A stretch of DNA of 64,000 bases from contig DASUQI010000037.1 in the NCBI GenBank assembly GCA_036280655.1, forward strand, positions 8,735 through 72,734, given 5' to 3'. The notes under the pieces were generated by a model that saw only the letters and a program-made list of their open reading frames with translations, had not been told where the DNA came from and did no database searches. Numbering within the stretch: the stretch's first letter is position 1; every line of letters begins with the position of its first letter. The translations under genes and the position numbers were made by a program. Source of the stretch: Actinomycetota bacterium. GTDB taxonomy: Bacteria > Actinomycetota > UBA4738 > HRBIN12. Below are positions 11,772-60,460 of the stretch, one piece after another.

Positions 11772-13042
11772 CGCTCCGCCGCCCAGTCGGTCCGGGACAG
11801 CCAGTTCACCACATCGTCGATCGGCACCTCGTCCTGCTCGCCGTCGGCCAGCCGACGCATCGTGGCCGCGCCCGCCGCGACCTCGCGTTCGCCGAGGATC
11901 ACCGCATAGGCGGCGCCCGACCGGTCGGCCATCTTCAGCTGCGCCTTCAGCGGTCGCTCCTCGTACGCCGACTCCGCAGGGATCCCGGCCGTCCGGAGGG
12001 CCTCGACGACGCGCGTTCCGACCGCCGCCGCCTCGGTCCCGATCGACACGACGAAGCACGCGACCGGTCGCACGCTCGGACGCTCTCCGCCCTCGGCGTC
12101 GAGCGCGACGAGCGTGCGGTCGAGGCCGAGGGCGAACCCCACGCCGGGCGTCGGCGGACCCCCGAGGACCTCCGCGAGCCCGTCGTACCGGCCGCCCCCG
12201 CACACCGTCGCCTGGGCCTGTGAGAGCGCGCCCGAGACGAACTCGAACGTGGTCCGCGTGTAGTAGTCGAGCCCGCGGACGAGGCGTGGGTCGTGCACGA
12301 ACGCGACCCCCAACGCGTCCAGCCCGTTGCGGACGGCGGCGAAGTGCTCCGCGCAAGGCTGGCACAGGTGATCCGAGATCACCGGCGCCTCCTGCACGAG
12401 CGGGGTCGGACCGTCCACCTTGCAGTCGAACACCCGGAGCGGGTTCGTTCGAAGCCGGACCCGGCAGTCTTCGTCGAGCTCGTCCCGGTGCGGCTCGAGG
12501 TGCGCGATCAGGAGCTCGCGATACGCGGGCCGGCACTCGCCGTCGCCGATCGAGTTCACGCGGAGCGCCAGGTCCGCGAGGCCGCGTCCGCGAAGGTACC
12601 GGTCCCCCACCGCGACGATCTCGACGTCCGCGGCCGGCCCGGCCACGCCGATCATCTCGATCCCGAACTGGCGGAACTCCCGGAGCCGCCCCGCCTGCGG
12701 TCGCCCGTGTCGGAACTGCGTCGCGACGTAGTACGCCTTGAACGGCGTCGGCAGCTCCTGCGCGTGCGCGAGGTACGCGCGAACCACGCTCGCGGTCTGC
12801 TCGGGCCGCAGTGTGAGCGAGCGGCCCCCCTTGTCCTCGAACGTGTACATCTCCTTCGTCACAACGTCGGAGGTCTCGCCCGACGTGCGTGCGAATAGCT
12901 CCGTGTGCTCGAACGTCGGCGTCTCCGCGTACCGGAACCCGTAGAGCCGCGCGATCCGGTGCGCGGCGTCGTACAGGCCGAGCATCGCCTCGGAGTCCGC
13001 TGGGAGGAGGTCGACCGTGCCGCGCGGCGGCTGCAGCTCCAC
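11768..13042 (-). CDS. hisS: Histidine--tRNA ligase.
   Basis: 424 aa: MELQPPRGTVDLLPADS...RYLRGRGL...GGGRYDGL... plus an anticodon-binding domain. Confidence 0.93.
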   Translation of the reverse strand: MELQPPRGTVDLLPADSEAMLGLYDAAHRIARLYGFRYAETPTFEHTELFARTSGETSDVVTKEMYTFEDKGGRSLTLRPEQTASVVRAYLAHAQELPTPFKAYYVATQFRHGRPQAGRLREFRQFGIEMIGVAGPAADVEIVAVGDRYLRGRGLADLALRVNSIGDGECRPAYRELLIAHLEPHRDELDEDCRVRLRTNPLRVFDCKVDGPTPLVQEAPVISDHLCQPCAEHFAAVRNGLDALGVAFVHDPRLVRGLDYYTRTTFEFVSGALSQAQATVCGGGRYDGLAEVLGGPPTPGVGFALGLDRTLVALDAEGGERPSVRPVACFVVSIGTEAAAVGTRVVEALRTAGIPAESAYEERPLKAQLKMADRSGAAYAVILGEREVAAGAATMRRLADGEQDEVPIDDVVNWLSRTDWAAER

Positions 13043-45321: not shown

Positions 45322-45358
45322 CTGCTCTCCCCTCGGACGGCATCGTGCTGCGGCCGGG

Positions 45359-45430
45359 TGGGCGCGGCAGGTTTTGAACCTGCGACCTCTCGCGTGTGAG
45401 GCGAGCGCTCTCCCGCTGAGCTACGCGCCC
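45359..45430 (-). tRNA. tRNA-Val (anticodon CAC).
   Basis: Reverse complement: GGGCGCGTAGCTCAGCGGGAGAGCGCTCGCCTCACACGCGAGAGGTCGCAGGTTCAAAACCTGCCGCGCCCA. It has a 7-bp acceptor stem, an anticodon stem CTCGC/GCGAG with loop CU-CAC-AC, and a GGTTCAAAACC T-arm. Confidence 0.8.
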
Positions 45431-46151: not shown

Positions 46152-46511
46152 TCAGCCCTCGCCGACGACCGTTCGCAGCGCCGCGTCGAACGAGTCCTCG
46201 AACGCGACCACGTCCCGGGCACCGGCCATCGTGAGGACGCCGCGGACCCGCGACCCCTCCGGGGCCACCACGGCGAGCCGCTGCTCGCGCCAGCGGAGGC
46301 GTTCGGCCATCTCGCCCAGCATGCGGATGCCGGCGCTGTCCAGGTAACTCACACCCGTCAGGTCGACGACCATCCCCGCGGCGGTGTTCGGGACCGCGTC
46401 GAGCATGGAACGCTCGAGCGTCGCCGCGTTCGACAGGTCGATCTCGCCGGTGACGCGGGCCACGACCGCGCCGTCCTGCTCCTCCACGGCGAGGTCGGCG
46501 AGCCGGCTCAC
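46152..46511 (-). CDS. STAS-domain anti-sigma-factor antagonist (RsbV/SpoIIAA-like).
   Basis: …VVARVTGEIDLSNAATLERSML…VVDLTGVSYLDSAGIRMLGE…. The GTG start overlaps the upstream gene's stop (GTGA). Confidence 0.78.
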   Translation of the reverse strand: MSRLADLAVEEQDGAVVARVTGEIDLSNAATLERSMLDAVPNTAAGMVVDLTGVSYLDSAGIRMLGEMAERLRWREQRLAVVAPEGSRVRGVLTMAGARDVVAFEDSFDAALRTVVGEG

Positions 46512-49165
46512 GGAGCGACCTTCGTTCGGACCGGTCGACGCATCCGAACCTCCGTGCCCGAGCCGCCCCGGTCGATCTCGACCGATCCCATGCATGCCTC
46601 GATCACGGAAAGGCCTCGCCCACCGCGACCGCGGGGAGCCCGCCAGCGGCCTCGGTCGCGGACGACGACATGGACCTCGTCGTTCGAGATCGCCGCTTCC
46701 AGCTCGACCCAGGCCTTCGACGGACCGTACGCGTGACGGATGCTGTTCGCGGCCGCCTCCGAGGAGGCGAGCACCACGTCGCCCTGCACGTCGGCGGGGA
46801 CGCCGGCCGCGTCGAGCCAGCGCGCGAGGCGTCGACGCATCTCCGACAGCGCGTCGGGCTCAGCGGGGATCCTCAGGCGGAGGTCGCCGGGGGGCGTGGG
46901 CGTGAGGCAGACGGCGAGCAGGGCGATGTCGTCCGAGACGTCGCCCGACACCATCGCCCCCAGGATCCGGTCGCACAGCTCTTCCGGATCGGCGTCGCGG
47001 TTGGCCTCGGCCGCCGCGATCAGCCGTCGCAGGCCCTCGTCGATCGCGAGGTCGTGCCGGTCGATCAGCCCGTCCGTGTAGAGGAGCACCATCTCGCCCG
47101 TCTCGAGCGACGCGGTCGAGGCGCCGAACCTCGCGTGCGGCCCGAAACCGAGCGGCGGGGCGAGCTCCATGTCGAGCAGTCGAGCCCCGCCCGGGCCGAG
47201 CGCGATCGGCGGCGGGTGCCCCGCGCTCACGATCGTGGCGGCGCGGGCCCCGACGTCGAGCGCGACGAGCAGGATCGTGGCCATCTCGTCCTCGGCGACC
47301 TCGTGCATCAAGGCGTCCGTGCGCTCCGCGACCACGGTCGGCGAGTGCCCCTCGAGTGCGTACGCGCGCACGGCCGTCCGCAGCTGCCCCATCAGACTCG
47401 CGGCATCGAGCCCGTGGCCGGCGACGTCGCCGATCACCAGGACGACCCGCTCGCCCCCGAGCGCGATCACGTCGTACCAGTCGCCCCCGGCCGCGACGCC
47501 GAGCTCCGCCGGCATGTACCGGGCCGCGATGAGCACGCCGTCCATCTCCGGGAACGACGACGGGAGCAACGAACGCTGGAGGGTGTCGGCGATCCGGTGC
47601 TCGCGTTCGAACTCGTGGCGTTCGGTCACGTCCTGCACGGTGCCGAACATCCGCACGGGCGTCCCGTCGTCGGCGAGCGAGAACCGCGCCCTCGCGTGGA
47701 GGTGCTTCGTCCGTCCGTCGGGCAGCTCGATCCGGTAATCCACGTCCGGCACGTCGGCGCGGCGCTGCTCGAGCGCGACCTCGGTGGTGCGGCGGATGCG
47801 TGCCCGGTCCGCCTCCGCGACGAATCCGATCGCCTTGTCGAACGTCACCGGGAACGCGCCGGGCTCGACGCCGTGGATCCGGAACATCTCCTCCGACCAC
47901 GACACCTCTCCGCTCGCGAGGTCCCATTCCCACGCCCCGATCCCCGCCACCTCGTGGGCTTCGGCGAGTTGCCGTTCGCTGCGGCGGAGCTTGGACTCGG
48001 CTTCCCGTCGCTCGGCGATCTGCGCGGCGAGCCGCTGGTTCGCGTCGGAGAGCTCCGTCGTCCGTCGTTGCACGCGGGCCTCGAGGTCCGCCGCGCCGCG
48101 TTCGAGGGCCTCCCGCGACCGGGCGCGCTCGGAGACGAGCGCGGCGAGGAAGAACGCGGTGAACGCGACGGTGGCGTTGAAGCCCAGGAGGGTGATCATC
48201 CGGTCGACGAGGTCAGTACCTTGGAATGGTCCCCGGTCCCCGACCGCCGCCCAGGTCGCCGCGCTGGAGACCAGCAGTGCGGCCGGCGCCGCCCCCGACT
48301 GCTCGAAGCGCCACGACGCCCAGCCGACGAACGGCAGCGCGACGAAGAGCAACGAGACGTCGGCCGTCACGGCGAACAGCGCGACGCCCGCGAGGACCGC
48401 GAGCACGACGAACAGCTCCAGCAGTTCGAGCCGGCGGGGCGGAAGGTAGCGGTGGTGGGCTCGGTTCCACGCCACCAGGAGGAACGGCGCGACCACCAGA
48501 ACCCCCATCGAGTCGCCCGCCCACCACACGGACCACGAGGTCCAGAACTCGCCCGATGCGAGCTGATCGGACAAGACGAGCGACGCCGCCCCGATCGTCG
48601 CGCTCAGGAGCATGCTCGAGAGCGCCGCGAACAGGAGCACGACGACGTCGCGGGGCCGGTCGAGCTCGGTCCGGAACCGGGCGCGCCGGAGGATCCACAC
48701 GGTGAGCAGCGGGGCGAGCGTGTTCCCGACCGCAGTGATGACGGCCGCGAACGGCGACTCTGTGATCGGGAGGTTGACGGCCAGAGCGCCGATCGCGATG
48801 CCCGGCCACCACCGGGTGCCGAAGAGCAGCAGCACGGCCACCGCGATACCCGTCGGCGGCCAGAGCGGCGTGATGTTCTCCTCGACGAGCGCGAGGCGGA
48901 GGCTGAAGAAGGCCGCCAGCCCGTAGACGCCCGCGAGCAGCGCGAAGCCCCCGATGGTTCTGAGGGTGCGGCGTCGCGTGTCGTCCTCGGGGCGCACGTT
49001 CCCCGCCGTGCCGTTTCCCCTGTTCGCGTCCACGGTGGCGCCACCATGCCCCAGAACGGCCCGGTGCGCCAACCCTCGCGCGGCCTCACGCCTCCGATGC
49101 GGTTCAGATCGGGACGATCGTCCCGAGGCCGAACGGCGCACCGCCCGACGGTAGGCTGAGGCCAT
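46508..49165 (-). CDS. Multidomain signalling protein: MASE1 membrane sensor, coiled coil, PAS, PP2C (SpoIIE-like) phosphatase, HATPase_c (RsbW-like kinase).
   Basis: MASE1 helices (…ITPLWPPTGIAVAVLLLFG…). PAS (…GIGAWEWDLASGEVSWSEEMFRIHG…). PP2C (…GGDWYDVIALGGERVVLVIGDVAGHGLDAA…LLYTDGL…). HATPase (…EAAANSIRHAY…VHVVVRDRGRW…). The N-terminal start is approximate. Confidence 0.83.
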   Translation of the reverse strand: MASAYRRAVRRSASGRSSRSEPHRRREAARGLAHRAVLGHGGATVDANRGNGTAGNVRPEDDTRRRTLRTIGGFALLAGVYGLAAFFSLRLALVEENITPLWPPTGIAVAVLLLFGTRWWPGIAIGALAVNLPITESPFAAVITAVGNTLAPLLTVWILRRARFRTELDRPRDVVVLLFAALSSMLLSATIGAASLVLSDQLASGEFWTSWSVWWAGDSMGVLVVAPFLLVAWNRAHHRYLPPRRLELLELFVVLAVLAGVALFAVTADVSLLFVALPFVGWASWRFEQSGAAPAALLVSSAATWAAVGDRGPFQGTDLVDRMITLLGFNATVAFTAFFLAALVSERARSREALERGAADLEARVQRRTTELSDANQRLAAQIAERREAESKLRRSERQLAEAHEVAGIGAWEWDLASGEVSWSEEMFRIHGVEPGAFPVTFDKAIGFVAEADRARIRRTTEVALEQRRADVPDVDYRIELPDGRTKHLHARARFSLADDGTPVRMFGTVQDVTERHEFEREHRIADTLQRSLLPSSFPEMDGVLIAARYMPAELGVAAGGDWYDVIALGGERVVLVIGDVAGHGLDAASLMGQLRTAVRAYALEGHSPTVVAERTDALMHEVAEDEMATILLVALDVGARAATIVSAGHPPPIALGPGGARLLDMELAPPLGFGPHARFGASTASLETGEMVLLYTDGLIDRHDLAIDEGLRRLIAAAEANRDADPEELCDRILGAMVSGDVSDDIALLAVCLTPTPPGDLRLRIPAEPDALSEMRRRLARWLDAAGVPADVQGDVVLASSEAAANSIRHAYGPSKAWVELEAAISNDEVHVVVRDRGRWRAPRGRGGRGLSVIEACMGSVEIDRGGSGTEVRMRRPVRTKVAP

Positions 49166-49217
49166 CGAGGCGCCGAGGAGGAACCCATCGACCGACGGGA
49201 CGAGCTCATCCGTGCCG

Positions 49218-50307
49218 GCGTGGAGGTCGCCTCCGAGCACGACCTCTCGGCGATCCTTCGGCGAATCGTCGAGCTCGCGTCCAGCTGACCGACGCGCGGT
49301 ACGGCGCGCTCGGCGTCCTCGGTGCCAACGGCGGGCTGTCGGATTTCATCAGCACCGGCGTGACCGACGAGCAGCGCGCCGCGATCGGCGATCCCCCGCA
49401 CGGCCGGGGGATCCTCGGACTGCTCGTCAGCGAGGCGCGGCCACTGCGCCTGCGCAATATCGCCGATCATCCGAGCTCCGTCGGGTTCCCGCCGAACCAC
49501 CCGCCGATGCGGTCGTTCCTCGGCGCTCCGGTGAGCGCCCGGGGCAGCGTCTTCGGCAACATCTACCTCACCGACAAGCAGGGGGCGGTCGAGTTCGACG
49601 AGGGCGACGAGGAGACCCTGGTCGTGCTGGCGACGCAAGCCGGCGTCGCGATCGAGAACGTCCGACTGCTGGAGGAGACGGAGAGCGCGCAGGAGCGGCT
49701 CCGGGAACTGTCCGTCCTCGAGGACCGGGAGCGGATCGCGCGGGAGTTGCACGACGGCGTGATCCAGTCGCTGTTCGCCGCCGGCATGAGCCTCCAGGGA
49801 GCGGCCGCGATGACGGCGACGCCAACCTCGGCGGGCCGGATCGAAGGCGTGGTCACGGACCTCGACCGGACGATCGGCGATCTCCGCAACTACATCTTCG
49901 GGCTCCGGCCGGGTCCGCTCGCCGACCGCGAGCTCGACCGGGCACTGCGCGACCTCGCGGAGGACTTCCAGGAGCGGACCGGGATCGTGACCGTCGTCGA
50001 GGTGCAGCCGGCGACCGCCGCCGCGATCTCTGCCGAGGCGGGCGACGTGCTCCAGATCGTCCGCGAGGCGCTCTCCAACGTCGGGCGTCACTCCGGGGCG
50101 GAGACGTGCCGGCTCGTGCTCCGGCAGGCGAACGGGATCGCCACGCTCGAGGTCGACGACGACGGCGCGGGCTTCGGTTCGGCGTCAGTGGAAGGCAGCG
50201 GCCTCCCCAACCTCCGTGCACGCGCCGAGCGCATCGGCGCGACGCTCGCGATCGACAGCTCGGGCAACGGGACCACCGTGCGCCTCGAGATCCCCCTTCT
50301 GCGCTGA
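49218..50307 (+). pseudogene. Sensor histidine kinase (GAF + HisKA_3 + HATPase_c, DevS/NarL-partner type) with an apparent frameshift.
   Basis: Frame A encodes …EVASEHDLSAILRRIVELASS* and frame B continues LTDARYGALGVLGANGGLSDFI… (GAF), then …ERIARELHDGVIQSLF… (HisKA_3) and …GSGLPNLRARAERIGATL… (HATPase). One base seems to be missing near 49276 (agc[c]tgacc). Confidence 0.7.
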
Positions 50308-50860: not shown

Positions 50861-50863
50861 AGC

Positions 50864-51535
50864 ATGGCGACGATGACGAAGGCGCCGCCGCTCCGCGTGA
50901 TGCTCGTCGACGACCACGAGGTCGTGCGGGACGGCATCCGCGCGATGCTCGAACCCGAGGAGGACGTCGTCGTCACGGCCGAGGCCGGAACGGTCCGCGA
51001 GGCCGTGGACGAGGCCTCGCGCACCCGTCCGGACGTGATCGTGATGGACGTGCGGCTCGCGGACGGCAGCGGGATCGAGGCAACGCGCGAGATCCGCGCG
51101 ATGCTGCCCGAAACGCGCGTGCTGATGCTGACGTCGTTCGCCGACGACGAGGCCCTGTTCCTCGATCATGGCCGGCGCGTCGGGGTACGTGCTCAAGCAG
51201 GTCCGCTCTGGCGAGCTGCTCCGGGCGATCAAGCAGGTGGGCGACGGCCGCTCGCTCCTGGATCCCGAGGTCACCGGCTCGGTCCTCGAGCGTCTGCGGA
51301 AGGGCAAGCACCTCCTGAAGGACGAGCGGCTCGCCAGGCTGTCTCCACAGGAGGAGCGAATCCTCAACATGGTCGCGGAGGGCCGGACGAACAAGGAGAT
51401 CGGCGACGAGCTCGGCCTGGCCGAGACCGTCAAGAACTACGTCTCGAGCATCCGTCTAAGCTCGACGTCGCGAGACGAGCCGAGGCGGCCGCTTATCTGG
51501 CAAGGCACACGACCACGCCGGGCTCGGTCGAGTAG
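50864..51535 (+). pseudogene. NarL/FixJ-family response regulator (REC + LuxR HTH) with two compensating frameshifts.
   Basis: Frame 1: MATMTKAPPLRVMLVDDHEVVRDGIRAM…DVIVMDVRLADGSG…LMLTSFADDEALF. Frame 2 (about 51169-51458): MAGASGYVLKQ…LSPQEERILNMVAEGRTNKEIGDELGLAETVKNYVSSI. Then back to frame 1: …SKLDVARRAEAAAYLARH*. Confidence 0.75.
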
Positions 51536-51579
51536 CCGGCAGAGCGTTCTCCGCGATCGCCTTCGTATGCTCGGTTGTC

Positions 51580-52248
51580 GTGTCGAGACTCGCCAATGTT
51601 GCGGTTCCCTGCTCTGTTGCCGTCCTCCTGCTCGCGGCCTGCACGGGCGAGGACGCGACGGGACCCGCCGCGTCCGGTTCCGATCGCTCCTCGGCATCAC
51701 CATCGCCGACGCCGTCCCCCTCGGAAGGGTCCTCGCGGAGGGGCACCAGCCCGATCTTCACCACCGCCAACGAGTTCGTCCTGGCGCCAGAGGACACGCC
51801 GTACCCGTACACCAGGCCGATCTCGCCGCGGACGCGGACCCCCCTCGACGGGACGTACCTGCGGATCCTCACGATCGAGGACGTGGACGGCCTGCTGCCG
51901 TTCCGGTGCCTGCGATGTCCCCCCTTCTTCCTGAACGCCGGCGTGAGCACGATCGCCTTCCACAGGGGCAGCTACTGGCTGAACCACCAGCTCTCGGGGT
52001 TCAAGTCGCTCGGGATGTATACGGTCGAACGGAACCGGGTCACGTTCTTCAACGACCCGTGGTGTCCGCAGGACCGGGGCACCTACCGGTGGGACGTCCG
52101 CGATGGCGCGCTCTTCTTCGAGCCGGTCTCCGGCACGTGCGTCTACGAGGAGGCGCGGGCCAAGGACCTCACGAAGAGCCCCTGGACGAAGATCAAGCCC
52201 TGCGTCTACCTGATCGAGCACCTCTGGCCCGGCCCGATCGCCTGCTGA
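51580..52248 (+). CDS. Cys-rich lipoprotein (hypothetical).
   Basis: Signal peptide with lipobox (VAVLLLAAC), a Pro/Ser-rich linker, and eight Cys in the mature domain. Confidence 0.6.
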   Translation: MSRLANVAVPCSVAVLLLAACTGEDATGPAASGSDRSSASPSPTPSPSEGSSRRGTSPIFTTANEFVLAPEDTPYPYTRPISPRTRTPLDGTYLRILTIEDVDGLLPFRCLRCPPFFLNAGVSTIAFHRGSYWLNHQLSGFKSLGMYTVERNRVTFFNDPWCPQDRGTYRWDVRDGALFFEPVSGTCVYEEARAKDLTKSPWTKIKPCVYLIEHLWPGPIAC

Positions 52249-52393
52249 GGGCCAGCTCGGGCGACACACTGCGGATCCGTTGCCGGCGGGAGGCGTAACA
52301 CGTCGCCAGAGCGAGCGGCGCGGCCCACGGAGACCTCCACCGTTCACCTAGAGTTCATCGGTCGATGACGCGATCCGAACCCGACCCGATGCC

Positions 52394-52894
52394 GTGAAGG
52401 AAGCGGCTCCCATCCTTCGAGGGCTGACCGTCGAGGACGCCGCAGCATGTGACGCGATCGTCGCCGGCCTGCCGTATCACTTCGGGAACGAGCGCGGCGT
52501 CGCCGCGTGCGCGGAGGCCGTTCGTAGCCAGGAAGGGTTCGTCGCGGCGATCGACGAGCGGGTCGTCGGCTTCCTCACGTTCGAGGCTCACTCGGCCGAG
52601 AGCGTTGAGATCACGTGGATGGCCGTGCACGCCGAGCATCGTCGGCGTGGCATCGGACGTTCGATGATCGAGCACGCATCCGCCAACCTGGCCGCGCGGG
52701 GCGTCCGGTTCGTCTCCGTCCTCACGCTTGGACCCTCCGTCCCTGAGGACGTCCCGGACGGGTACGACGGAACCCGGCGCTTCTATCGAGCGGTTGGGTT
52801 CACGCCCTTGCGCGAGCTGGATCTGCGCTCCTGGGACGACGAGTCGGCGCTGCTCCTGGTCCGCGCACTCGGTCCGAGCCACACGATCGAGTGA
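52394..52894 (+). CDS. GNAT-family N-acetyltransferase.
   Basis: …WMAVHAEHRRRGIGRSMIEHA… acetyl-CoA binding motif (R/Q-x-x-G-x-G/A). Confidence 0.8.
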   Translation: MKEAAPILRGLTVEDAAACDAIVAGLPYHFGNERGVAACAEAVRSQEGFVAAIDERVVGFLTFEAHSAESVEITWMAVHAEHRRRGIGRSMIEHASANLAARGVRFVSVLTLGPSVPEDVPDGYDGTRRFYRAVGFTPLRELDLRSWDDESALLLVRALGPSHTIE

Positions 52895-53412
52895 TCGATC
52901 GGTTGCGTAGATCATGGACAGCCGGTCGTGTTCCCTTGGCTCGACGGACAGGAGCCTTAGGTACCGCCGATCGGTCACGCTTCCGAACAGAGGCTTCCCT
53001 CCACCAAGGAGCACGGGGTTCACGATGAGCCGGATGTCATCGATCAACCCGATGTTGATCATGCTAGAGACGAGCAGCGCTCCTCCAACCACGTAGATGT
53101 TCTTGCCGGAGTGCTCTTTCAGCTTCCGGATCTCTCGAGGTCCGGCGCGACGCGTGAGTTACTCCACGCAACATCCATCGGCTTGCGAGAGACGACGATG
53201 TGGGGCCTCCTGGACGCCCACGTCGCATATTCGATCTCCTTGGGCGTCGCCGGCTTCCCGCTCAAAGGCAGCGAGGCTTCGGGGTCTTCCAAGACCGCCG
53301 TCCAGTACTCCTCCCAGCCCGGATGGAAGGACCGGTGGGTTGGCGAAGCATCCTCGCGATGCCGGGCGGATCTGAGCTTGCCCTCTGGCAAGCGAAGCGC
53401 TGACGAGGGCAT
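52895..53412 (-). pseudogene. Dihydrofolate reductase-family (RibD_C-like) gene fragmented by a frameshift.
   Basis: The N-terminal part is in ORF 53119..53412 (…GWEEYWTAV…IVVSRKP…). The C-terminal part is at the start of ORF 52355..53092 (MVGGALLVSSMINIGLIDDIRLIVNPVLLGGGKPLF…YATDR) in another frame. An intact paralogue is at 62302..62907. Confidence 0.5.
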
Positions 53413-53419
53413 CGTCGCG

Positions 53420-53464
53420 TGGTGGGCGCTAGAGGAATTGAACCTCTGACCTCTTCCGCGTCAA
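53420..53464 (-). repeat. 45-bp partial copy of the tRNA-Val(GAC) 3' half (island attR-type direct repeat).
   Basis: tggtgggcgctagaggaattgaacctctgacctcttccgcgtcaa is identical to 60288..60332, the 3' end through the anticodon loop of the intact tRNA. Confidence 0.85.
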
Positions 53465-53667
53465 AGAACGAACAGGCAACGCTGTGACCAGCGCTCTCGC
53501 AGTTCAGTGGCCGTTGGAGGAGCCACAGATGTACCGCTGGGTACAGCCTGGTCCCGTCGGCTCCTGACCAGATATTGACCGACAGTCCCTCGCTCGATCG
53601 GATGGCTCCTGAGCGGGCACATCATTCCCGGGTCACAGGAGACGCGAAGTGTTCCTCCACCGTCCGA

Positions 53668-54147
53668 CTAGCCTCGTAGGGCGGCGAGGCGAGGCGAGAG
53701 CATTCCAAAGAGCGTCGAAACCAGCTGCATACCGTTAAGGATGATCGCCAGCATCGCCAACGTGCGACCGAGACGGTCCGAGGCTCGGACCTCACCCCAG
53801 ATCGCGAAGATCAGCCCGACGGCATATCCCGCCGGCATGAGGATCAGCCCGGCCGCCCCGGAAGGGACCGGGGCAATCCATCCCCAGAACCATCCCAGGA
53901 GGAGCGAGGCCCAAACTATCGGTGGGACTGCCGGACGCCTGTCCGTCTCGGAGGGTTTGAAAGGAGCGGGAACGCGCTCGGAGGTCGGCAGAACGCCGTT
54001 CGGTCCCCACACATCGCCCAACCGCGAGGCCCCGACCGGCGCCCTTGGCGCAGCCCACGCGGGAGCCTCGGCGGGATTCTTGTGGCATGTGGGACAGACG
54101 GTCGCCTCGTCCCGCAGTTCCTCGGCGCAGTGCGGACACACCTTCAC
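53668..54147 (-). CDS. Zinc-ribbon (CPHC…CPTC) N-terminal domain protein with C-terminal TM helices.
   Basis: MKVCPHCAEELRDEATVCPTCHK…, then a Pro-rich linker and two or three hydrophobic helices. Confidence 0.5.
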   Translation of the reverse strand: MKVCPHCAEELRDEATVCPTCHKNPAEAPAWAAPRAPVGASRLGDVWGPNGVLPTSERVPAPFKPSETDRRPAVPPIVWASLLLGWFWGWIAPVPSGAAGLILMPAGYAVGLIFAIWGEVRASDRLGRTLAMLAIILNGMQLVSTLFGMLSPRLAALRG

Positions 54148-54204
54148 GCTGATTGTTTCGGCACGCGGTCGCGGTTGCCTTACGGAAGGGTCCGCCGCCG
54201 GCGG

Positions 54205-54783
54205 TTAGGCCGGCTCGCCGATGAAGCGACGGTAGCGGTCGCGGCACTCAACTGCCGGCTCGCCAGATCGGAACAGGAATGAGACGGGCGAGAGCTCGCC
54301 GCTTCTGTCGTGGCGCTTCAACACCACGGCGTACCGCTCCTCCTGGGAAGTCTCTAACTCGCGGATTGGGTCGATCAGCGCGTCGGCCACCTCGAGACCG
54401 TCTTCGTCGACGATCACGGCATGCGTGATGCTCTCGCGGGGGAGGCGTGCGAATTCGGCCTCGGGATCGTGGTTCCAGTTATCGAGCAGCACGAAGTCCT
54501 GAGCCGTAACCGCGACCAGAATCGAGCGGAACTCTCCGTCGACCCGAGCGAGGCCCGAGAAGAACGTGGCCTCCGATGCAATCGCTCGGAGTTTCTCGGT
54601 CCGACGCATAGCCGCCTCATGGCGGAGGGCCTCATCCTCCGTGAGGGATGCCATCGCCGCGCGGGCGTCATCGAGCTCGAGGTCGTGCAGGCCACCCCAA
54701 ATCACGTACGCGACGCCGGCACGTCTCGCACCTGGGAGAACATTGCCCAAGGCTGACCCGATCGCCTCAATCGCGTCGCTCAT
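54205..54783 (-). CDS. Hypothetical protein (192 aa).
   Basis: Long ORF with island-type codon usage. No recognisable motif. Confidence 0.4.
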   Translation of the reverse strand: MSDAIEAIGSALGNVLPGARRAGVAYVIWGGLHDLELDDARAAMASLTEDEALRHEAAMRRTEKLRAIASEATFFSGLARVDGEFRSILVAVTAQDFVLLDNWNHDPEAEFARLPRESITHAVIVDEDGLEVADALIDPIRELETSQEERYAVVLKRHDRSGELSPVSFLFRSGEPAVECRDRYRRFIGEPA

Positions 54784-55216
54784 GCGTCCCCTTCATGCGG
54801 ACCTGCCTTGCGCCTATCGGAAATCATCGGCTGAGCCCCCTCCCGGCATGAATAGGCGCGTGGTCAACGACGTCCATCGTGCTTCGTTACCAAGCCGGGT
54901 GTCGCAGCTTGCGCCCGATTGAGCTGATCCACGGCTACGGGAGCGGCACCTGAGCGACTGCGAGGAGGACAGGACACGGCGGGCCGTCCTGATCGGGATG
55001 CTACGGGAGATGGATGCCGAGAGTTGGCGGCTACTCCCCGTCTGACCGCACCCAACGAGCAACCGTGTCGGCCAACCCCTTCGTCGGCCACCATGTCACC
55101 ATGAACAGTCGACCGGTTGAGAACCTGCCGATGACCCACCATCCGAAGTGCTTACCGCGTCGGAAGGTGGCGTTGCGGTTACTCATGGGCCTCCTTCGGG
55201 TCGCCTAGGATCGCGA

Positions 55217-55684
55217 TCAGATCGCCGACGACTTCATCGAGCGGTCGGCTTGCATCCAGTTCATGCGTGCAGCCCTTCTGAGGAGCGGCTCGACCTCAGC
55301 GAGGTCCGCCAAGATCATCGCTCGTTCCGACGGAGTTCTCCCGTTGGTGTTCGTCGTTCTGCGTGCAACCCGGTCAAGGATCACGTCAGCAGGGGCGCTG
55401 AGCAGGACGACCGCGTCGAAGCGATCGCAGAACTTCGACTGGTTCCACACGCACCCTTCAACGAAGAGCGAGCGACCATCATCGGAGTCCAGTAGCTCGG
55501 TGATCTTCTCCTCGACCCAGAGCCACTCCCCGAGGTGCAACTCGTCTGAGGGCTCAAGATACGCGCGATACTCGCTCCAGCCCGGATCATCGGTGTCTAC
55601 GACGCGATAACCGCGACGGGCAAGCTCGGCGAGCGCCGACGACTTGCCGGTTCCCGACATACCAGTCACCAAGACCCTCGACAC
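55217..55684 (-). CDS. P-loop NTPase (AAA_33 / small kinase-like).
   Basis: MSRVLVTGMSGTGKSSALAELARRGYRVVDTDD… Walker A at the N-terminus. Confidence 0.68.
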   Translation of the reverse strand: MSRVLVTGMSGTGKSSALAELARRGYRVVDTDDPGWSEYRAYLEPSDELHLGEWLWVEEKITELLDSDDGRSLFVEGCVWNQSKFCDRFDAVVLLSAPADVILDRVARRTTNTNGRTPSERAMILADLAEVEPLLRRAARMNWMQADRSMKSSAI

Positions 55685-55813
55685 AGTGGAACGCTACCGA
55701 GTGTCAAGCGGCGGCGTCGCGGGCGCGGCCTCCGCCCCAAAGTCAGCGGCGGGATGGGCGCGTGAAGTCGGTCACGCTTCGGGAACGTACATCTGACGGG
55801 ACGTCAAGGCGCC

Positions 55814-56260
55814 TCAGGCAGTCAGGACGGGATCAGGTCGCCGCCTATCACCGCTGCCACTTGGGGTTGCGGCGAGTTGATTCGTCGTCGCCACCAACCA
55901 GTTGGTACCAACCACCGACGGGGTGTGACGCGCCGCCTCCCCGAGGTTTGTCGGTCGAGCGACGCCCTTCCATACATGAAGCGTCACCGTGGCTGACCCG
56001 ACCTCACACAGTGCGGCGTCGTGGTCCGCCGAAATCTGCAAGTCGATTGGGTAGACACGCGAGCATCCGATGCCGTGTGCGTCGATATCCCCTGCCAGAG
56101 CCTGGGTCGAGGAGTAGGAGGGAGCCGTCTCATCCCGGTCACCGGGCGCGAGACCCAGGGCGACAATGACCACGAGGCCAACCGCCACACCCACGACGCG
56201 CCTGACCATCCCGCCCAAAGGATGGCACCCAGCTAACTCTTCGTGCTGGCCGCGTGACAC
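55814..56260 (-). CDS. Hypothetical secreted/membrane protein.
   Basis: Internal start MVRRVVGVAVGLVVIVALGLAP is signal-peptide-like. No other motif. Confidence 0.38.
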   Translation of the reverse strand: MSRGQHEELAGCHPLGGMVRRVVGVAVGLVVIVALGLAPGDRDETAPSYSSTQALAGDIDAHGIGCSRVYPIDLQISADHDAALCEVGSATVTLHVWKGVARPTNLGEAARHTPSVVGTNWLVATTNQLAATPSGSGDRRRPDPVLTA

Positions 56261-57150
56261 CGGTCACGCGTCCGTACATGTTGTCGCACCGGGCTGCTAC
56301 GGCCTGAGCTACCCAGGGCCGTGTCGGACCCCAGCGCTACCTGTCGATTCTCGGCGTGACAGGGGGACTAGCGATGCGATGCCCGCGGGGCTCAGAACGC
56401 CGAAACGTCCGACGAGTCAGGCGGATCCGCGTGAGACACCCGCGCTAGGAGTCGTCCTCAATCAGGAGCGCCGGACCTGCAGCATCCTCCATGTTCGGCG
56501 GGATGGCATCCAACTGTGCGTACAGATGAGTTGCTGATCGACTGCGAGGAGGACCGAGTCGTCCGGGCGGTGCTGATCGGGATGCTGCTGGAGGGCGATA
56601 GGCCGCCGTCCCTAGGGCCGCCCGGGACTTCAACGCACCTCGGGGACGGTCAAAGGAGTGAAGCGGTCAAGCGCCGGGACTAGCGACCCTATGGAGCCAC
56701 CCCCAGCCCGAGCTCTTGACACGCTCAACGACCTCGCTCACATGATCTACAACCAACGCCTACCCCGCGGATCGAGGAAGTAGTTCAGGGCCGCGCTCAA
56801 ATTGAGTCCCGGTTGTCCTCCGCGAACGCGGTTCCCGTCTCGCGGAGGCGCCTTGAATCCTCCCTGACCGACACCGCAGCCTCGCGCACGGCGACGGCTT
56901 CTTCGCGAAGGTTGGCCAACCGCGCCCGGAGACGCGCTGCAGACTCGCGGAGACTGGCAACCGATTCCACGGCCGCTCCTCTCGAACAGGTCGAAAGGGC
57001 GACCGGTTAGGCGTGCGCCAACCGTCCAGACGACGTTACGAGCACCGTGTCACACTGCGAGCGACTGACGCAAGGCGTCTCGTGAGAGTAGCCCCCGACG
57101 CGTTCCCATCCTGAGAGGGAGGGGTAGGGCCAAGGGCGTTAGCGCGGATC

Positions 57151-57339
57151 CTAGCCACCTCGGGTCCGGGGGGGCTCGCTGGCGAGGTGACCATACGCCT
57201 CAGCGAGATGGAGGATCACCCTTGCAATCTCCTCGTTCTCCGCCTGGGCCGTGAGCGTTGTGATCTTCTTGGCGATCTCCTGGCGGGCCGTCGCTGCCGC
57301 AGCTGCGGCCCTGATCTGAGCGTCGGTATGCGACGTCAT
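57151..57339 (-). CDS. Hypothetical small helical protein (62 aa).
   Basis: Ala-rich with a helical pattern. Weak evidence. Confidence 0.25.
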   Translation of the reverse strand: MTSHTDAQIRAAAAAATARQEIAKKITTLTAQAENEEIARVILHLAEAYGHLASEPPRTRGG

Positions 57340-57519
57340 TTTGGTATCACCCCCGCGACTAGATGCTACTCGTCCACGTACGCAACCCGCCAGACGCAGG
57401 CTCGTCTGCTACTGGGGCGCGAGACGCGGCAGTGGTTCAGTGACCAGCTCATCCAACCGTGTTCCTGTTAGAGTCCTCCGGTAGCATTTCCGGCTCGGTT
57501 CGCATCGAGCGACCGTCCG

Positions 57520-57756
57520 ATGGCCATCGCTCCTCTGTCGTCGGCCCTTGTTCCCTACGGATCGACGAACAGGAGGGAGCACGATGGCCACCGCTCTCCG
57601 CGAGTTGGATTGGCGTTTTTCTGCCCGATCTGTGGGATTCCCCTCGAACGGTTCGACTTCGACAAGGCTTCCGAGGATTACTCCTGCCCGTTCTGCTGCT
57701 CGCAGCAGCGACCCTCACGGGTTGCGGCTCGCGCCGGGTGGGAGAACCCGGATTAG
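57520..57756 (+). CDS. Small zinc-ribbon protein (CPICG…CPFCC).
   Basis: 78 aa. Two CxxC pairs spaced for a zinc ribbon. Confidence 0.35.
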   Translation: MAIAPLSSALVPYGSTNRREHDGHRSPRVGLAFFCPICGIPLERFDFDKASEDYSCPFCCSQQRPSRVAARAGWENPD

Positions 57757-57951
57757 GTGGCGCATCGGATGAGCACGCACATCTACGGTTCACCACTGAA
57801 GGAAGGACAGGTCGAGACGTATCCTGAGAAACGAACGTGCTCGGAGGAAGGGTGCTCGACCCGACTCTCCATCTACAACCCGTCGAAGCAGTTCTGTTGG
57901 CTCCACGAATGGGTCGGTCCGCGACGTGGCGACTCACCTACTCGGTCATAG
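57757..57951 (+). CDS. Small Cys/His-rich protein (64 aa).
   Basis: …CSEEGCSTRLSIYNPSKQFCWLHEW… a zinc-finger-like C-x4-C…C-x2-H arrangement. Its start abuts the stop of the previous ORF. Confidence 0.35.
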   Translation: MAHRMSTHIYGSPLKEGQVETYPEKRTCSEEGCSTRLSIYNPSKQFCWLHEWVGPRRGDSPTRS

Positions 57952-58651
57952 GGACCCTGTGTCCGCGGAAGGACTCTCGCCGAAGAGCGTTAGAGCACCT
58001 GTAGGCCAGCTCAATTCACTCTGTTCATGTGGCCACTCGGAGTTCGTTCATTAGCGACCGCCGAGGACGTCCCTGCCTCTTCAACAGATGTCCCTGCCAG
58101 CGGCTCTGTCCCATCCACAAGGTGCTTATGCCAGCGGCGCGATCGCACGCAGTGTGATCGAGTGCGAGGACCGAGTCGTCCGGGCGGTGTTGGTCGGGAT
58201 GCTGCGGGGGACCGACCGTTAAGAGCGGATACGCTCTTCTATCTCAGCCAGAGATTCAGGGTGAAGCGGCCCCCACAGTCTCGTTTACTCGGAGTCATCA
58301 AAATGCGTGATCGGTGACCCTTCCACTTACGGCTGGAACGTCATCAGCGACCTTCCGGGCTGGACACCTACAAGGTCCGCGACTGCCGCCGAACTCTCGT
58401 CTCCCGGCCTCCCCTGACGACCCCTCACCCGTCACAACGGGGCCGACCTCCACCGGGCCAACCTCGACGGGACGAACCGCGACAGGTCCAACCTCGACGG
58501 GGCCGACCGCGACAGGGAGCACGTAGCACGACCTTCCCTGCCCCCTTGGGTCATCACCTCGAGCAGCCGCTCCTGATCGACGCCGAGGAGGCCGGACGCT
58601 CCGGGCGGTTCTGGTCGAGATGCTGCGGGATGACGGAGCGGGAGTAGCGAC

Positions 58652-58984
58652 CTAACCCCGAGGGTCGGTTCGAGTGGCTACCTCCGCAGGCGTCCCCTCC
58701 CGTTTGGCCACGAGGACGAATCGGTCGTTCTCCTCAACGACTGCCTCGACGTCCTGAATGACATGCTCGTGGACAACACAGAACTGGCGAGGGTCGTTCC
58801 GGACCCGCTCGTACTCGTCCTTCATCACCGCAATAACCTCGTCGCACCTCTCGTATCCGCACTCGCAGGCGATGTGCATGAACGAGCTGTCGGGAAGGGA
58901 TTCGCGGGTCTGGTCGATCTGTTCGTTGATCCCCCTCGCAACCGCCTCGTTCTTCGCGATCCGTTCCTCCCTGAAGCCCATCAC
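58652..58984 (-). CDS. Small CxCG-motif protein, paralogue 1.
   Basis: 110 aa: …HIACECGYERCDEVIAVMKDEYERVRNDPRQFCVVHEHV…. It is paralogous to 59438..59770. Confidence 0.5.
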   Translation of the reverse strand: MMGFREERIAKNEAVARGINEQIDQTRESLPDSSFMHIACECGYERCDEVIAVMKDEYERVRNDPRQFCVVHEHVIQDVEAVVEENDRFVLVAKREGTPAEVATRTDPRG

Positions 58985-59210
58985 GGTTCTCCCAACTCTT
59001 TCCTGGGTGCCAACCCAACGGATACCCGAAGTCGCGTGCCGGGAACCCCGAGCTGCTCATCGACCGCGAGGAGGGACCGGACGCTGCGGGCGGTGCTGGT
59101 CGGGATGCTGCGGGAAGCGGTCCGCTAGGCTGCCAGGCGGTCGATCTCGAACCACACAGTCTTACGTCCCTCGAGGGAGCGCCCCCAGCGGTCGGCCAAC
59201 TTATCCACGA

Positions 59211-59480
59211 CTACCAAGCCGAGTGGGGTCGATCCTTGTGCCCGTCCAAGTTGAGCCGGTCGAAGGTGAACCAAGGCCCACCGTCTACGACCGTCACGCG
59301 GATCACGGCGTCCCTCGCCTCGAGCTGCAGACCGATCTGGCCGTCTGCCTCAGGGCCGCCATGTCGAGCCGCGTTGTCGACGATCTCGGAGACCATCAGG
59401 ACGACCTCGTCGGAGCGGGCGGCCGGGAGCCGGTCGCTCACGAAATCCGCCGTGATCTTGCGGGCAATCCCCGGAGCGGT
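59211..59480 (-). CDS. RsbW-like anti-sigma factor / Ser-protein kinase (HATPase_c). Start is approximate.
   Basis: …VVLMVSEIVDNAARHG…IRVTVVDGGPWF…. The N-terminal part of the track ORF overlaps the neighbouring gene in another frame. Confidence 0.62.
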   Translation of the reverse strand, partial: TAPGIARKITADFVSDRLPAARSDEVVLMVSEIVDNAARHGGPEADGQIGLQLEARDAVIRVTVVDGGPWFTFDRLNLDGHKDRPHSAW

Positions 59481-59770
59481 CTGCTCATAAGGCAGCCGGT
59501 GCTCCACATCATGACGCTGATCACCGAGTCGATCTCCGGGTTCTCGTGATCGAGTGCGAGCGCGAAGCGGGTGGCCTCGCTCCGGATACCCTCGTACTCC
59601 GCTCGGGTGAGTCGGATCGGATCGGAGCATCGCACGTCTCCGCACTCACAGAGGTACGTGTCCATCGCACGCTCGAGCCCCTCACGACCGTCGGTGTCGT
59701 CCTCCGTCCACTCGTTCATCTCGCGGAAGATCGTCTGGTTGATGGCCTCCTGAGCTCGATAGTCAGCCAT
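59438..59770 (-). CDS. Small CxCG-motif protein, paralogue 2.
   Basis: Internal start MADYRAQEAINQTIFREMNEW…YLCECGDVRCSDPIRLTRAEYEGIRSEATRFALALDHE… shares the CECG-x2-RC…EYE…HE pattern with 58652..58984. Confidence 0.5.
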   Translation of the reverse strand: MADYRAQEAINQTIFREMNEWTEDDTDGREGLERAMDTYLCECGDVRCSDPIRLTRAEYEGIRSEATRFALALDHENPEIDSVISVMMWSTGCLMSRPLRGLPARSRRIS

Positions 59771-60113
59771 CGGGATGCCCGTCGAGGTCGGCCGATGAGC
59801 GCGACGAACCAGGAGCACGCTGCGTGAAGCGGGCGAGGAGCCGCACCCCTTCTCGCTCATCGACGACGTACTCGGTCGCGGTCACCTGGAGGATCTTCCT
59901 GAGCTGGTCGCTCGCGCCAATCAGGGCCAGGCGATGTCCGTTGTCCTTCGCACGGCGCTGTGCGTTCAAGAACGTGCGCAGCCCCGTGGAATCGACGAAG
60001 GTCAGGTCTCGAAGATCGAGGAGCACCCCCCCGACGTCGTCCTGCTCGACCCGCGTCAGGTGCTGTTCGAGCGTCGGAGCGGTTGCTAGGTCGAGTTCGC
60101 CCCAAAGGGCCAA
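59763..60113 (-). CDS. STAS-domain anti-sigma-factor antagonist (RsbV-like).
   Basis: …GGVLLDLRDLTFVDSTGLRTFLNAQRRA…HRLALIGASDQLRKIL…. Confidence 0.72.
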   Translation of the reverse strand: MALWGELDLATAPTLEQHLTRVEQDDVGGVLLDLRDLTFVDSTGLRTFLNAQRRAKDNGHRLALIGASDQLRKILQVTATEYVVDEREGVRLLARFTQRAPGSSRSSADLDGHPDG

Positions 60114-60287
60114 TCGGACGACCTCGTTCCTGCGGTCGTCATAGGATGTCGAACAAGGAGCGGGACGGGACCCCCATGTTGGCTCCCCTCTGCGTGTCGG
60201 CGCTCTCTCGCCGATCGGGTGGTGAACCAGAAGTTGGGGTTCCCACGCGCCAGACCGTGGGTCCGGGTCCGGCGCGAACAGTCTACC

Positions 60288-60362
60288 TGGTGGGCGCTAG
60301 AGGAATTGAACCTCTGACCTCTTCCGCGTCAAGGAAGCGCTCTACCCCTGAGCTAAGCGCCC
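60288..60362 (-). tRNA. tRNA-Val (anticodon GAC), with CCA encoded. This is the island integration target.
   Basis: Reverse complement: GGGCGCTTAGCTCAGGGGTAGAGCGCTTCCTTGACGCGGAAGAGGTCAGAGGTTCAATTCCTCTAGCGCCCACCA. The anticodon stem is CTTCC/GGAAG with loop UU-GAC-GC. Confidence 0.88.
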
Positions 60363-60389
60363 GAGATCCGGCATCGTACCGCCGGGCCG

Positions 60390-60460
60390 AGGCGGGGACC
60401 GGAATTGAACCGGTGTAGAGGGTTTTGCAGACCCTTGCCTAACCACTCGGCCACCCCGCC
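60390..60460 (-). tRNA. tRNA-Cys (anticodon GCA).
   Basis: Reverse complement: GGCGGGGTGGCCGAGTGGTTAAGGCAAGGGTCTGCAAAACCCTCTACACCGGTTCAATTCCGGTCCCCGCCT. It has a 7-bp acceptor stem, U8, an anticodon stem AGGGT/ACCCT with loop CU-GCA-AA, and U73 discriminator. Confidence 0.85.

Follow-up and report, generated by a model that had tools for sequence, protein, structure and literature searches.

The locus considered here raises the question of what kind of DNA lies between an intact tRNA gene and a displaced copy of its 3' half, and how it came to be there. The stretch analysed (hereafter the window) comprises 64,000 nucleotides from an uncultured Actinomycetota bacterium (assembly GCA_036280655.1, contig DASUQI010000037.1, positions 8,735 to 72,734), whose genome is a metagenome-assembled genome (MAG) with locus tags VF028_*. 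The interval between tRNA-Val(GAC) and the partial copy is referred to as the island; outside it the window is core chromosome, with alaS, ruvABC, secDF, relA and hisS-like genes. Considering the tRNA geometry, the composition of the enclosed DNA and the state of the site in sister strains, the island is best regarded, with a probability of about 70 %, as a decayed composite relic of two tandem integrations into the 3' half of the tRNA-Val(GAC) gene, of the type known as cis-mobilizable elements (CIMEs).

The displaced copy (53420-53464) and the corresponding part of the gene (60288-60332) are identical at 45 of 45 nucleotides and have the same orientation, the copy lying 6,868 nt downstream of the intact gene. 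It spans positions 31-75 of the tRNA, from the anticodon loop to the CCA, and when the next 4 nt are included the similarity covers 49 nt at 98 %. Two matches to the 45-mer were obtained in 0 of 100 dinucleotide shuffles, and the repeat is therefore not expected by chance. No third copy with up to three mismatches is present in the window, a more sensitive scan of the window for other degenerate tRNA fragments yielded none, and tRNA-Val(GAC) and the adjacent tRNA-Cys(GCA) were the only Rfam matches. Thus the direct repeat of the tRNA-Val 3' half described in an earlier note on this DNA is confirmed by the full identity of the copies and by the ARAGORN and Rfam matches to the intact tRNA, and its interpretation as the scar of integration into a tRNA gene is supported by this geometry together with the foreign composition of the enclosed DNA.

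With respect to composition, the GC content of the island (53465-60287) is 0.644, as compared to 0.709 for positions 1-51000, while the flanks show values of 0.667 (left, 51000-53419, 2.4 kb) and 0.685 (right, 3.5 kb). When calculated over segments of 3.4 kb, the island values (0.638-0.651) are the minimum of the whole 64 kb, the remaining segments ranging from 0.688 to 0.739. Tetranucleotide correlation with the bulk is 0.89-0.93 for the island and 0.95-0.99 for other segments, and GC at third codon positions is ~0.73-0.79 in island open reading frames (ORFs), whereas the remaining genes listed for the window have values of 0.83-0.98. The anomaly is limited to roughly 51-61 kb and peaks inside the repeats. 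The windowed comparison that the earlier note had proposed as a check hence reveals a signature that is not uniform, and the island is indeed distinct in GC, although the contrast of 58-62 % with 72 % given there was overstated (64.4 % and 70.9 %).

Sister contigs, recovered by exact-protein look-ups and one DNA-pattern scan of metagenome contigs, reveal a further level of structure. All belong to the same species and come from other samples; L001, L020 and L021 are ~99.9 % identical to the window and L018/L019 and L041-L046 are ~98 % identical, and the island is carried by all of the ~10 strain contigs that reach the site. On comparison, it was found that five of them (L018, L041, L042, L043 and L045) contain a third copy of the tRNA-Val 3' part, matching at 47 of 49 nt, at the equivalent of window position 56309 (232-284 in L018 and 8284-8330 in L041). 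This middle copy sits in a 299-nt segment of the sister strains which is missing from the window, and since the junction shows only two bases of microhomology, the state of the window is considered a simple deletion. The order in L041-type strains is tRNA-Val, an element A, the middle fragment, an element B and the distal fragment. Because the sister strains hold the third copy, what looks like one island appears to be two tandem insertions whose inner tRNA-fragment boundary has been lost here by the 299-nt deletion; the view of a single island in the earlier note is thus retained as regards the integration scar, but not as regards the number of insertions. Element A measures 3.98 kb in the window, 5.56 kb in L018 and 6.65 kb in L041, and element B 2.85 kb in the window and ~3.0 kb in L041, L018 not covering it. 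Both displaced copies share 'GAACG' just past the part identical to the tRNA, where the tRNA itself has 'GAAGC', and when the arms of A and B beside the attachment (att) copies were compared, no likeness was seen beyond these ~5 nt.

The repeated part ends at the CCA, its copies are in direct orientation, the DNA they enclose is foreign, three copies occur in series, and a parallel exists at a tRNA-Gly gene of a related species (described below). On these grounds the geometry is the signature of tyrosine-integrase insertion, occurring twice. We infer an integrase-mediated origin, an order of insertion in which A is the younger and B the older element, and a loss of integrases by deletion. In the proposed history, an integrase-bearing element B would first have recombined with tRNA-Val(GAC), its own copy of the tRNA 3' half rebuilding the gene and the original 3' half of the host being displaced to 53420-53464. 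Element A would later have used the rebuilt tRNA likewise, pushing B outward and leaving the middle tRNA fragment between the two. Both would then have lost their recombination genes, along with any transfer or replication genes, by deletion. In this genome the further deletion of 299 nt has taken the middle fragment, and erosion of the cargo continues, the frameshifts, nonsense mutations and kilobase indels varying from strain to strain. It may be argued that no integration was needed to produce the tRNA fragments and that local duplication or gene conversion of a tRNA pseudogene, for instance, gave rise to them, as neither an empty site nor an integrase is available to prove integration. However, the copies comprise precisely the 3' part of the tRNA, are direct and bracket compositionally foreign DNA, and with three of them in series and the same geometry at tRNA-Gly in another species, we attach hardly any credence to such an origin. 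The coordinates of all features are collected in Table 1.

Table 1. Positions of the attachment sites, elements, genes and gene fragments discussed in the text; coordinates are those of the window unless a contig is named
Feature	Position	Strand	Remarks
Intact tRNA-Val(GAC)	60288..60362	-	Proximal attL-type site of the proposed composite island; ARAGORN; Rfam tRNA 70.1 bits
Distal direct repeat	53420..53464	-	attR-type scar; exact copy of tRNA-Val positions 31-75
Element A (putative)	56310..60287		tRNA-proximal; 3.98 kb; bounds in sister strains are the tRNA and the middle copy
Element B (putative)	53465..56309		Distal; 2.85 kb; between the deleted middle repeat and the distal repeat
Deletion junction	56308..56310		299 nt including the middle tRNA-Val fragment lost here; 'GC' microhomology only
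tRNA-Cys(GCA)	60389..60460	-	Chromosomal anchor outside the island, 26 nt upstream of tRNA-Val; ARAGORN, Rfam
RibD_C-family pseudogene	52890..53412	-	Chromosomal flank, starting 8 nt from the distal repeat
159-aa protein	53668..54147	-	N-terminal zinc ribbon; partner of the 192-aa gene
192-aa conserved protein	54205..54783	-	
STAS anti-sigma-factor antagonist	59763..60113	-	116-aa ORF from TTG; Pfam E = 6e-15, profile positions 16-92
CxCG2	59438..59770	-	Divergent CxCG-family paralogue (23% identity), C-terminus lost
RsbW-like HATPase_c_2 pseudogene	59125..59507	-	1-nt deletion at 59221/59222
CxCG1	58652..58981	-	109 aa; intact family member
78-aa ORF, 3' fragment	59052..59125	+	1-nt insertion; convergent with the end of the RsbW-like gene
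78-aa ORF, 3' fragment	58569..58637	+	1-nt deletion; convergent with the CxCG1 stop
78-aa ORF, 3' fragment	58153..58220	+	In-frame 3-nt deletion
78-aa ORF, 3' fragment	56530..56601	+	
78-aa ORF, 3' fragment	54946..55017	+	Sole copy in element B
78-aa ORF, full gene	L011:8733-8969	-	
78-aa ORF, full gene	L013:11860-12099	+	
78-aa ORF, full gene	L035:4949-5185	+	
CxCG gene with convergent 78-aa ORF copy	L001:642-1022 with 1035-1115		
CxCG gene with convergent 78-aa ORF copy	L013:10001-10330 with 10345-10573		
CxCG gene with convergent 78-aa ORF copy	L011:10001-10330 with 10343-10571		
Small P-loop NTPase (AAA_18)	55217..55684	-	Pfam E = 3.5e-12
148-aa orphan ORF	55814..56260	-	1-nt difference at 55863; no call in L041
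Two small orphan ORFs	56797..57339	-	57 aa and 62 aa
Two adjacent zinc-ribbon mini-ORFs	57520..57951	+	78 aa and 60-64 aa; conserved in L018
15-nt tandem repeat	58437..58517	+	Remnant of a pentapeptide-repeat gene

A six-frame Pfam search of 52880-60300 with stops masked detected no integrase, resolvase or transposase, in agreement with the earlier note, and the only matches were to STAS, HATPase_c_2, AAA_18, a zinc ribbon, a weak pentapeptide repeat and a RibD_C remnant, the last of which sits just left of the distal repeat and hence beyond the island. In the L041 variant, the largest one, Pfam searches on 10 of the 12 frames of the extra DNA likewise recognised no recombinase. Hallmarks of phage satellites (integrase, primase/replicase or packaging-interference genes) have no Pfam or PHROG match in the island. 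No parent integrative and conjugative element (ICE) or integrative and mobilizable element (IME) of the island was found in plasmid, phage or viral collections. Island DNA had no match in the plasmid and phage collections except a pentapeptide repeat, the 192-aa family had none in viral contigs, and neither the tRNA 3'-half 45-mer nor a 31-mer matched IMG/VR viral contigs. Integrative elements and temperate phages of actinomycetes, such as those of the pSAM2 (actinomycete ICE, AICE) and mycobacteriophage L5 types, target the 3' ends of tRNA genes and carry int/xis along with replication, transfer or virion genes. The island is similar to them in having an att identity of a few tens of nucleotides, from the anticodon loop to the end of the tRNA, and a restored tRNA, whereas it has no int/xis, replication, transfer or virion genes.

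Five large indels in the island separate strains with 1-2 % sequence divergence: 299 nt at 56309, 1.1 kb at 56383-56389 (whereby the window lacks the greater part of a 114-aa ORF), 242 nt at 56766-57008 (absent from sister strains), ~0.5-1.5 kb at 58412-58520 and 133 nt at 59514/59515. In the 1.55 kb to the right of tRNA-Val, no large indels between strains were found. It is the lack of a recombinase together with this indel load and the strain-specific knock-outs described below that suggests a relic. As it stands, the island cannot move by itself; by analogy with CIMEs, excision or co-mobilization could at most take place if an incoming element brought a matching integrase.

That integrative elements accrete in tandem and decay to CIMEs flanked by att sites but devoid of an integrase is established (PMC5704250), and partial tRNAs with degenerate remnants have been documented inside tRNA-linked islands (bioRxiv 10.1101/2020.12.28.424599). 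Like the ICESt1-related CIME19258 and CIME302 of Streptococcus thermophilus (Pavlovic et al. 2004, reviewed in PMC5704250), the island is flanked by attL/attR-type repeats of the 3' end of its target gene, is devoid of integration and transfer genes, and consists of tandem units with an internal att copy (present in L018, L041-L043 and L045 and deleted in the window); both are interpreted as decayed descendants of integrative elements. Unlike those CIMEs, which reside in the streptococcal fda gene, its target is a tRNA gene in uncultured Actinomycetota, and it has no known related intact ICE or IME and no trace of the lost modules. In the tycheposons of Prochlorococcus, too, successive insertions at one tRNA push older elements outward, elements are separated by partial tRNA copies alone, and degenerate remnants and extra partial tRNAs are scattered in the islands. 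However, tycheposons are defined by a tyrosine recombinase and a replication module, and their remnants include fragmented integrases, neither of which is detectable here. The relic island may thus be regarded as an ordinary further case of a tRNA hot spot at which elements accreted in tandem and decayed, in a soil lineage of Actinomycetota for which metagenomes are the sole source. It illustrates how fast such DNA can erode, considering that strains still ~98 % identical are separated by five large indels and have had the same genes knocked out independently.

Several observations weigh against the interpretation as a relic of two integrations. The parent elements are hypothetical, since no integrase remnant is present in A or B. 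Every sampled strain carries the island and none has an empty site; the exact empty junction (left flank joined to the full tRNA) had 0 matches in metagenome contigs, and a scan of genome contigs with the flanking alpha/beta hydrolase led only to non-syntenic loci with 36-59 % identity. The lower GC already begins ~2 kb to the left of the distal repeat. In addition, the 192-aa protein of element B has orthologues of graded identity, a pattern that might reflect a long stay in the lineage as opposed to a recent import, and with two independent tRNA-bounded, integrase-less intervals of ~2.85 kb bearing this gene and its partner, either two parallel decays or another mechanism is needed. In an exact search of metagenomes for the tRNA-Val/tRNA-Cys spacer, two strain contigs were retrieved, both with the island. 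The assemblies themselves restrict what can be seen: short Logan contigs with the zinc-ribbon gene of element B, which was found in 35 index blocks, stop 233 nt past the gene, inside the distal repeat at about 53435, and 9 of the 10 contigs shown end exactly at that position. They end there because the 45-nt repeat exceeds the k-mer of the assembler, and consequently empty-site or alternative junctions are invisible in such assemblies.

The genes for the 192-aa protein and the 159-aa zinc-ribbon protein of element B deserve attention, as they recur elsewhere. Orthologues of the former form a graded series from 100 % to 65 % identity across the lineage, and among the strains the gene is intact at 95-100 % identity; the zinc-ribbon gene adjoins it wherever checked. 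The identical zinc-ribbon product was seen in all 35 index blocks, yet some strain contigs lack a call for it. The hydrophobic C-terminal half of the zinc-ribbon protein is likely to be membrane-spanning, judging from its sequence, and the AlphaFold2 model of the 192-aa protein (predicted local distance difference test score, pLDDT, 55) is too poor for a fold search. In L047, from a related species, homologues with 82 % (192-aa protein) and 76 % (zinc-ribbon partner) identity are encoded at 10001-11126 within a low-GC interval of 2.86 kb, bounded by tRNA-Gly(TCC) (12595-12667) and a copy of its 3' end (34 nt, 94 %, at 9704-9737). An integrase would not fit into the interval, and relative to the tRNA the pair has the opposite orientation to that in the window. 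In the more distant relative L048, the pair (71 % and 49 % identity, 10001-11120) lies 193 nt from the 5' end of tRNA-Ser(TGA) (9723-9808), with no repeat and normal GC. Hence the pair adjoins three tRNA genes (Val, Gly and Ser) in three related organisms, in two of them within an integrase-less interval of ~2.85 kb.

Such recurrence is what one would expect if A and B were functional integrase-less mini-elements, satellites or hitchers excised and integrated in trans, via att sites derived from tRNAs, by an integrase with its gene elsewhere in the genome or on a helper element. Both of the tandem elements lack an integrase, the tRNA-Gly interval of almost the same size holds the same gene pair without one, the pair adjoins a third tRNA in L048, and the att copies are well kept (45/45 and 47/49). 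However, the inversion of the pair between the Gly and Val cases speaks against a conserved element architecture, the arms beside the att copies are alike for ~5 nt only, and the island occupies the same site in every strain, no empty or alternative junction having been found. In addition, the absence of the tRNA 3'-half sequence from IMG/VR contigs means that no helper bearing an attP site was seen, and the cargo is being pseudogenized. Mobilization in trans is accordingly considered possible but unlikely. Of the two options offered in the earlier note, an old island that has lost its integrase fits the decay best, and a satellite mobilized in trans is less favoured. That the pair recurs at different tRNAs, in intervals that lack an integrase and are delimited by tRNA fragments, is nevertheless a lead worth following.

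The relic interpretation also depends on the state of the cargo. All the items listed in the earlier note (STAS and RsbW-like genes, two CxCG paralogues, zinc-ribbon mini-proteins, a P-loop NTPase and a dispersed repeat) are present, and the proposed profile searches give matches to STAS, HATPase_c_2, AAA_18 and a zinc ribbon in Pfam and nothing in PADLOC. The gene products next to the tRNA recall the partner-switching proteins RsbV and RsbW (SpoIIAA and SpoIIAB) in that a STAS antagonist is found near a small HATPase_c_2 kinase-type protein (Pfam match on ORF 59211-59645, E = 5e-10). Unlike the known systems, a CxCG gene stands between the STAS and kinase-type genes, no cognate sigma factor or PP2C phosphatase is found in any frame of the island by six-frame Pfam searches, and scores are far below the NCBIfam equivalog cut-offs; NCBIfam assigns the STAS protein to the anti-sigma-antagonist superfamily and places the RsbW-like protein far below any equivalog cut-off. 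An RsbV/RsbW-type module comprises STAS and an intact HATPase_c_2 kinase, but here the kinase-type gene is frameshifted in both the window and L001. As the same truncated call appears in L001, an independent contig, misassembly of the MAG does not account for the frameshift.

On base-level comparison between strains, different lesions are seen in the same genes. The STAS ORF is open in the window, and L041-type strains have four small deletions that disrupt it. In the L041 type, CxCG2 contains a nonsense codon but keeps a family-like C-terminus, which in the window is removed, together with the region upstream of the RsbW-like gene, by the 133-nt deletion at 59514/59515. The RsbW-like gene is intact at 127 aa in L018 and L041. 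In each strain type at least two of the three upstream genes (STAS, CxCG2 and RsbW-like) are broken, and because different mutations inactivate the module in different strains, it is decaying and not a working system. CxCG1 is the only module gene shown to be unchanged at the protein level, its product being identical on five contigs. The family has more than 100 clusters, all from uncultured Actinomycetota, with an invariant C-E-C-G...C motif and an N-terminal REERIAKNEA, and searches with CxCG1 gave no Pfam match and no structural or fold match, the structure models being of low confidence. Contexts of the homologues vary: in L011-L013 they stand alone, and in L014-L017 a HATPase_c_2 gene converges with them.

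It may still be asked whether the cargo is a working accessory module, such as a partner-switching stress or defence switch delivered by the island. The STAS, CxCG2, RsbW-like and CxCG1 genes are co-directional and tightly packed, CxCG homologues adjoin a HATPase_c_2 gene in L014-L017, and CxCG1 is 100 % conserved across five contigs. Set against this are the lesions in at least two of the three upstream genes of each strain type, the lack of a sigma factor or PP2C phosphatase in the island, the solitary CxCG genes of L011-L013, and the result of PADLOC (0 families for 10 island proteins), so that a working module is highly improbable. PHROGs gave only generic ATPase and anti-sigma-like matches for island proteins, and Pfam searches on the plausible island ORFs gave no match beyond STAS, HATPase_c_2, AAA_18 and zinc ribbon. 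The module that the earlier note described as RsbV/RsbW-like therefore exists as a set of genes, with the RsbW-like member frameshifted and CxCG2 truncated, whereas its suggestion of a coherent, undescribed accessory system is not supported, given the strain-specific knock-outs, the unrelated contexts of CxCG genes, the occurrence of the repeat family outside the island and the absence of anything relevant in PADLOC and PHROGs. The cargo is a patchwork of small lineage-endemic genes and not one functional system, and it serves as a warning that a tidy-looking gene cluster in an island need not be a 'system'. A complete partner-switching locus is present in the core chromosome 7-14 kb from the island (46152-49240, minus strand, near tRNA-Val(CAC) at 45357-45430), encoding an 841-aa MASE1-PAS-SpoIIE-HATPase_c_2 protein followed by a 119-aa STAS protein; since the chromosome already has this locus, the broken STAS and RsbW-like genes of the island are regarded as redundant extras.

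Five plus-strand copies, each about 65-70 nt long, make up the dispersed repeat in the island. When aligned with its flanks, it corresponds to the last ~22 codons and stop of a 78-aa ORF of 237 nt: MRSDELERRLQERLDALGPAPRAELLHVLMLPDFERADRIGEFWGYPQSRTFAELLIDCEEDRTLRAVLVGMLREIER. Each of the five copies in the window lacks its 5' part; the reading frame is shifted in two of them, and another has lost 3 nt in frame. The repeat recurs several times in loci of other organisms (L011-L013, L035 and L047), and since copies are found there and, twice, just past the right end of the window in L001, it is not specific to the island; what the earlier note listed as a repeat family of the island cargo is a set of fragments of a lineage-wide ORF. 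In metagenomes the ORF has 5,995 clusters at 90 % identity, and 2,529 representatives are matched at 50 % identity, many covering only a part. It has no Pfam or NCBIfam match, nor any match in the plasmid and phage collections. Between organisms it is ~88-90 % conserved at the nucleotide level, the conservation being coextensive with the ORF, and mismatches among repeat copies at codon positions 1, 2 and 3 number 37, 20 and 51. RNAalifold on 16 copies detected no conserved hairpin in either orientation (-4.4 and -3.0 kcal/mol) and essentially no covariation; with no conserved hairpin, and with Rfam matching only tRNAs, a structured RNA or attC site was rejected. The repeats are read as debris of a multi-copy gene.

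Same-orientation arrays of the 5'-truncated fragments are scattered through variable regions. In every locus examined (window, L001, L011, L012 and L013) a copy of the 78-aa ORF abuts the stop of the CxCG gene, and these copies either are complete with a frameshift, have diverged, or consist of the 3' fragment alone. It looks as though CxCG and the 78-aa ORF form a conserved gene pair, one member of which is degenerate in most cases. Another CxCG paralogue with an abutting fragment, followed by a longer fragment, is located 4-6 kb past the right end of the window (L001:642-2966), and as the variable region continues there, the tRNA-Val island sits in a larger patch.

An arrangement of this kind may point to a lineage-specific counterpart of integron arrays, with cassettes assembled through recombination at the 3' fragments of the 78-aa ORF and with tRNA fragments as just one of several kinds of 3'-end attachment scar. 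The five same-orientation fragments in the island are 0.4-1.6 kb apart; comparable arrays, also in a single orientation, are present in L011, L012, L013 and L041; truncation points cluster at ORF nt 151-167 in more than 20 copies across loci; L035 has a full gene and, 1.8 kb further on, a 3' fragment, the two being separated by three genes; and the unit of CxCG gene plus fragment recurs with different neighbours. In repeat length (~65 nt), single orientation, spacing with orphan genes in between and lack of an integrase, the island does resemble integron arrays and clusters of attC sites lacking an integron integrase (CALINs). However, its repeats are 3' ORF fragments and not imperfect palindromes, and they lack an attC-like hairpin. 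Strain-level gain and loss ignores their boundaries: no island indel end (0 of those specific to strains) coincides with a fragment, and the repeats were accordingly rejected as boundaries of the strain indels. Fragments of the 5' end and frameshifted full-length copies exist too, as ordinary decay of a multi-copy gene predicts, no associated recombinase was seen, and the tRNA repeats are left unexplained, so that we consider a cassette array quite improbable.

A broader proposal would unite the two patterns: the lineage may shuffle integrase-less cassettes between the 3' ends of host genes (tRNA-Val, tRNA-Gly and the 78-aa ORF) through a recombinase acting in trans, the island being a live array of two units and the 192-aa and zinc-ribbon pair a recurrent passenger or stabilizing module. 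We regard this as rather unlikely. Nevertheless, a 237-nt ORF with thousands of near-identical variants, the 3' ends of which are scattered through variable regions, is a second lead, and if either lead did reflect active recombination in trans, it would amount to a new way for genes to move within a phylum-level group about which little is known.

Returning to the island as a relic, its pentapeptide-remnant spot is hypervariable, with about 25-110 nt in the window (58412-58520), 572 nt in L018 (3382-3954) and 1.58 kb in L041 (3600-5182), the longest version adding an orphan ORF of roughly 200 aa. On the left flank, the RibD_C-family gene is the one that would directly follow tRNA-Val in an empty site. 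It is broken here by an ~82-nt deletion near 53256-53325 relative to L045/L046, and its broken open frame (52355-53412, minus strand) runs antisense through a GNAT acetyltransferase gene (52394-52894, plus strand); gene callers alternate at this spot between a 274-291-aa 'RibD_C' protein and a 166-aa GNAT protein. Orthology of the window locus with L011/L012 was considered and rejected, the GNAT proteins being just 49 % identical and the hydrolases unrelated. Further to the left, beside a GAF/HisKA_3 kinase gene, a NarL/LuxR-type response regulator gene (about 50863-51534, plus strand) is frameshifted in this genome, lacking 2, 3 and 1 nt at 51160, 51424 and 51454, respectively, while L041-L046 carry an intact 225-aa gene.

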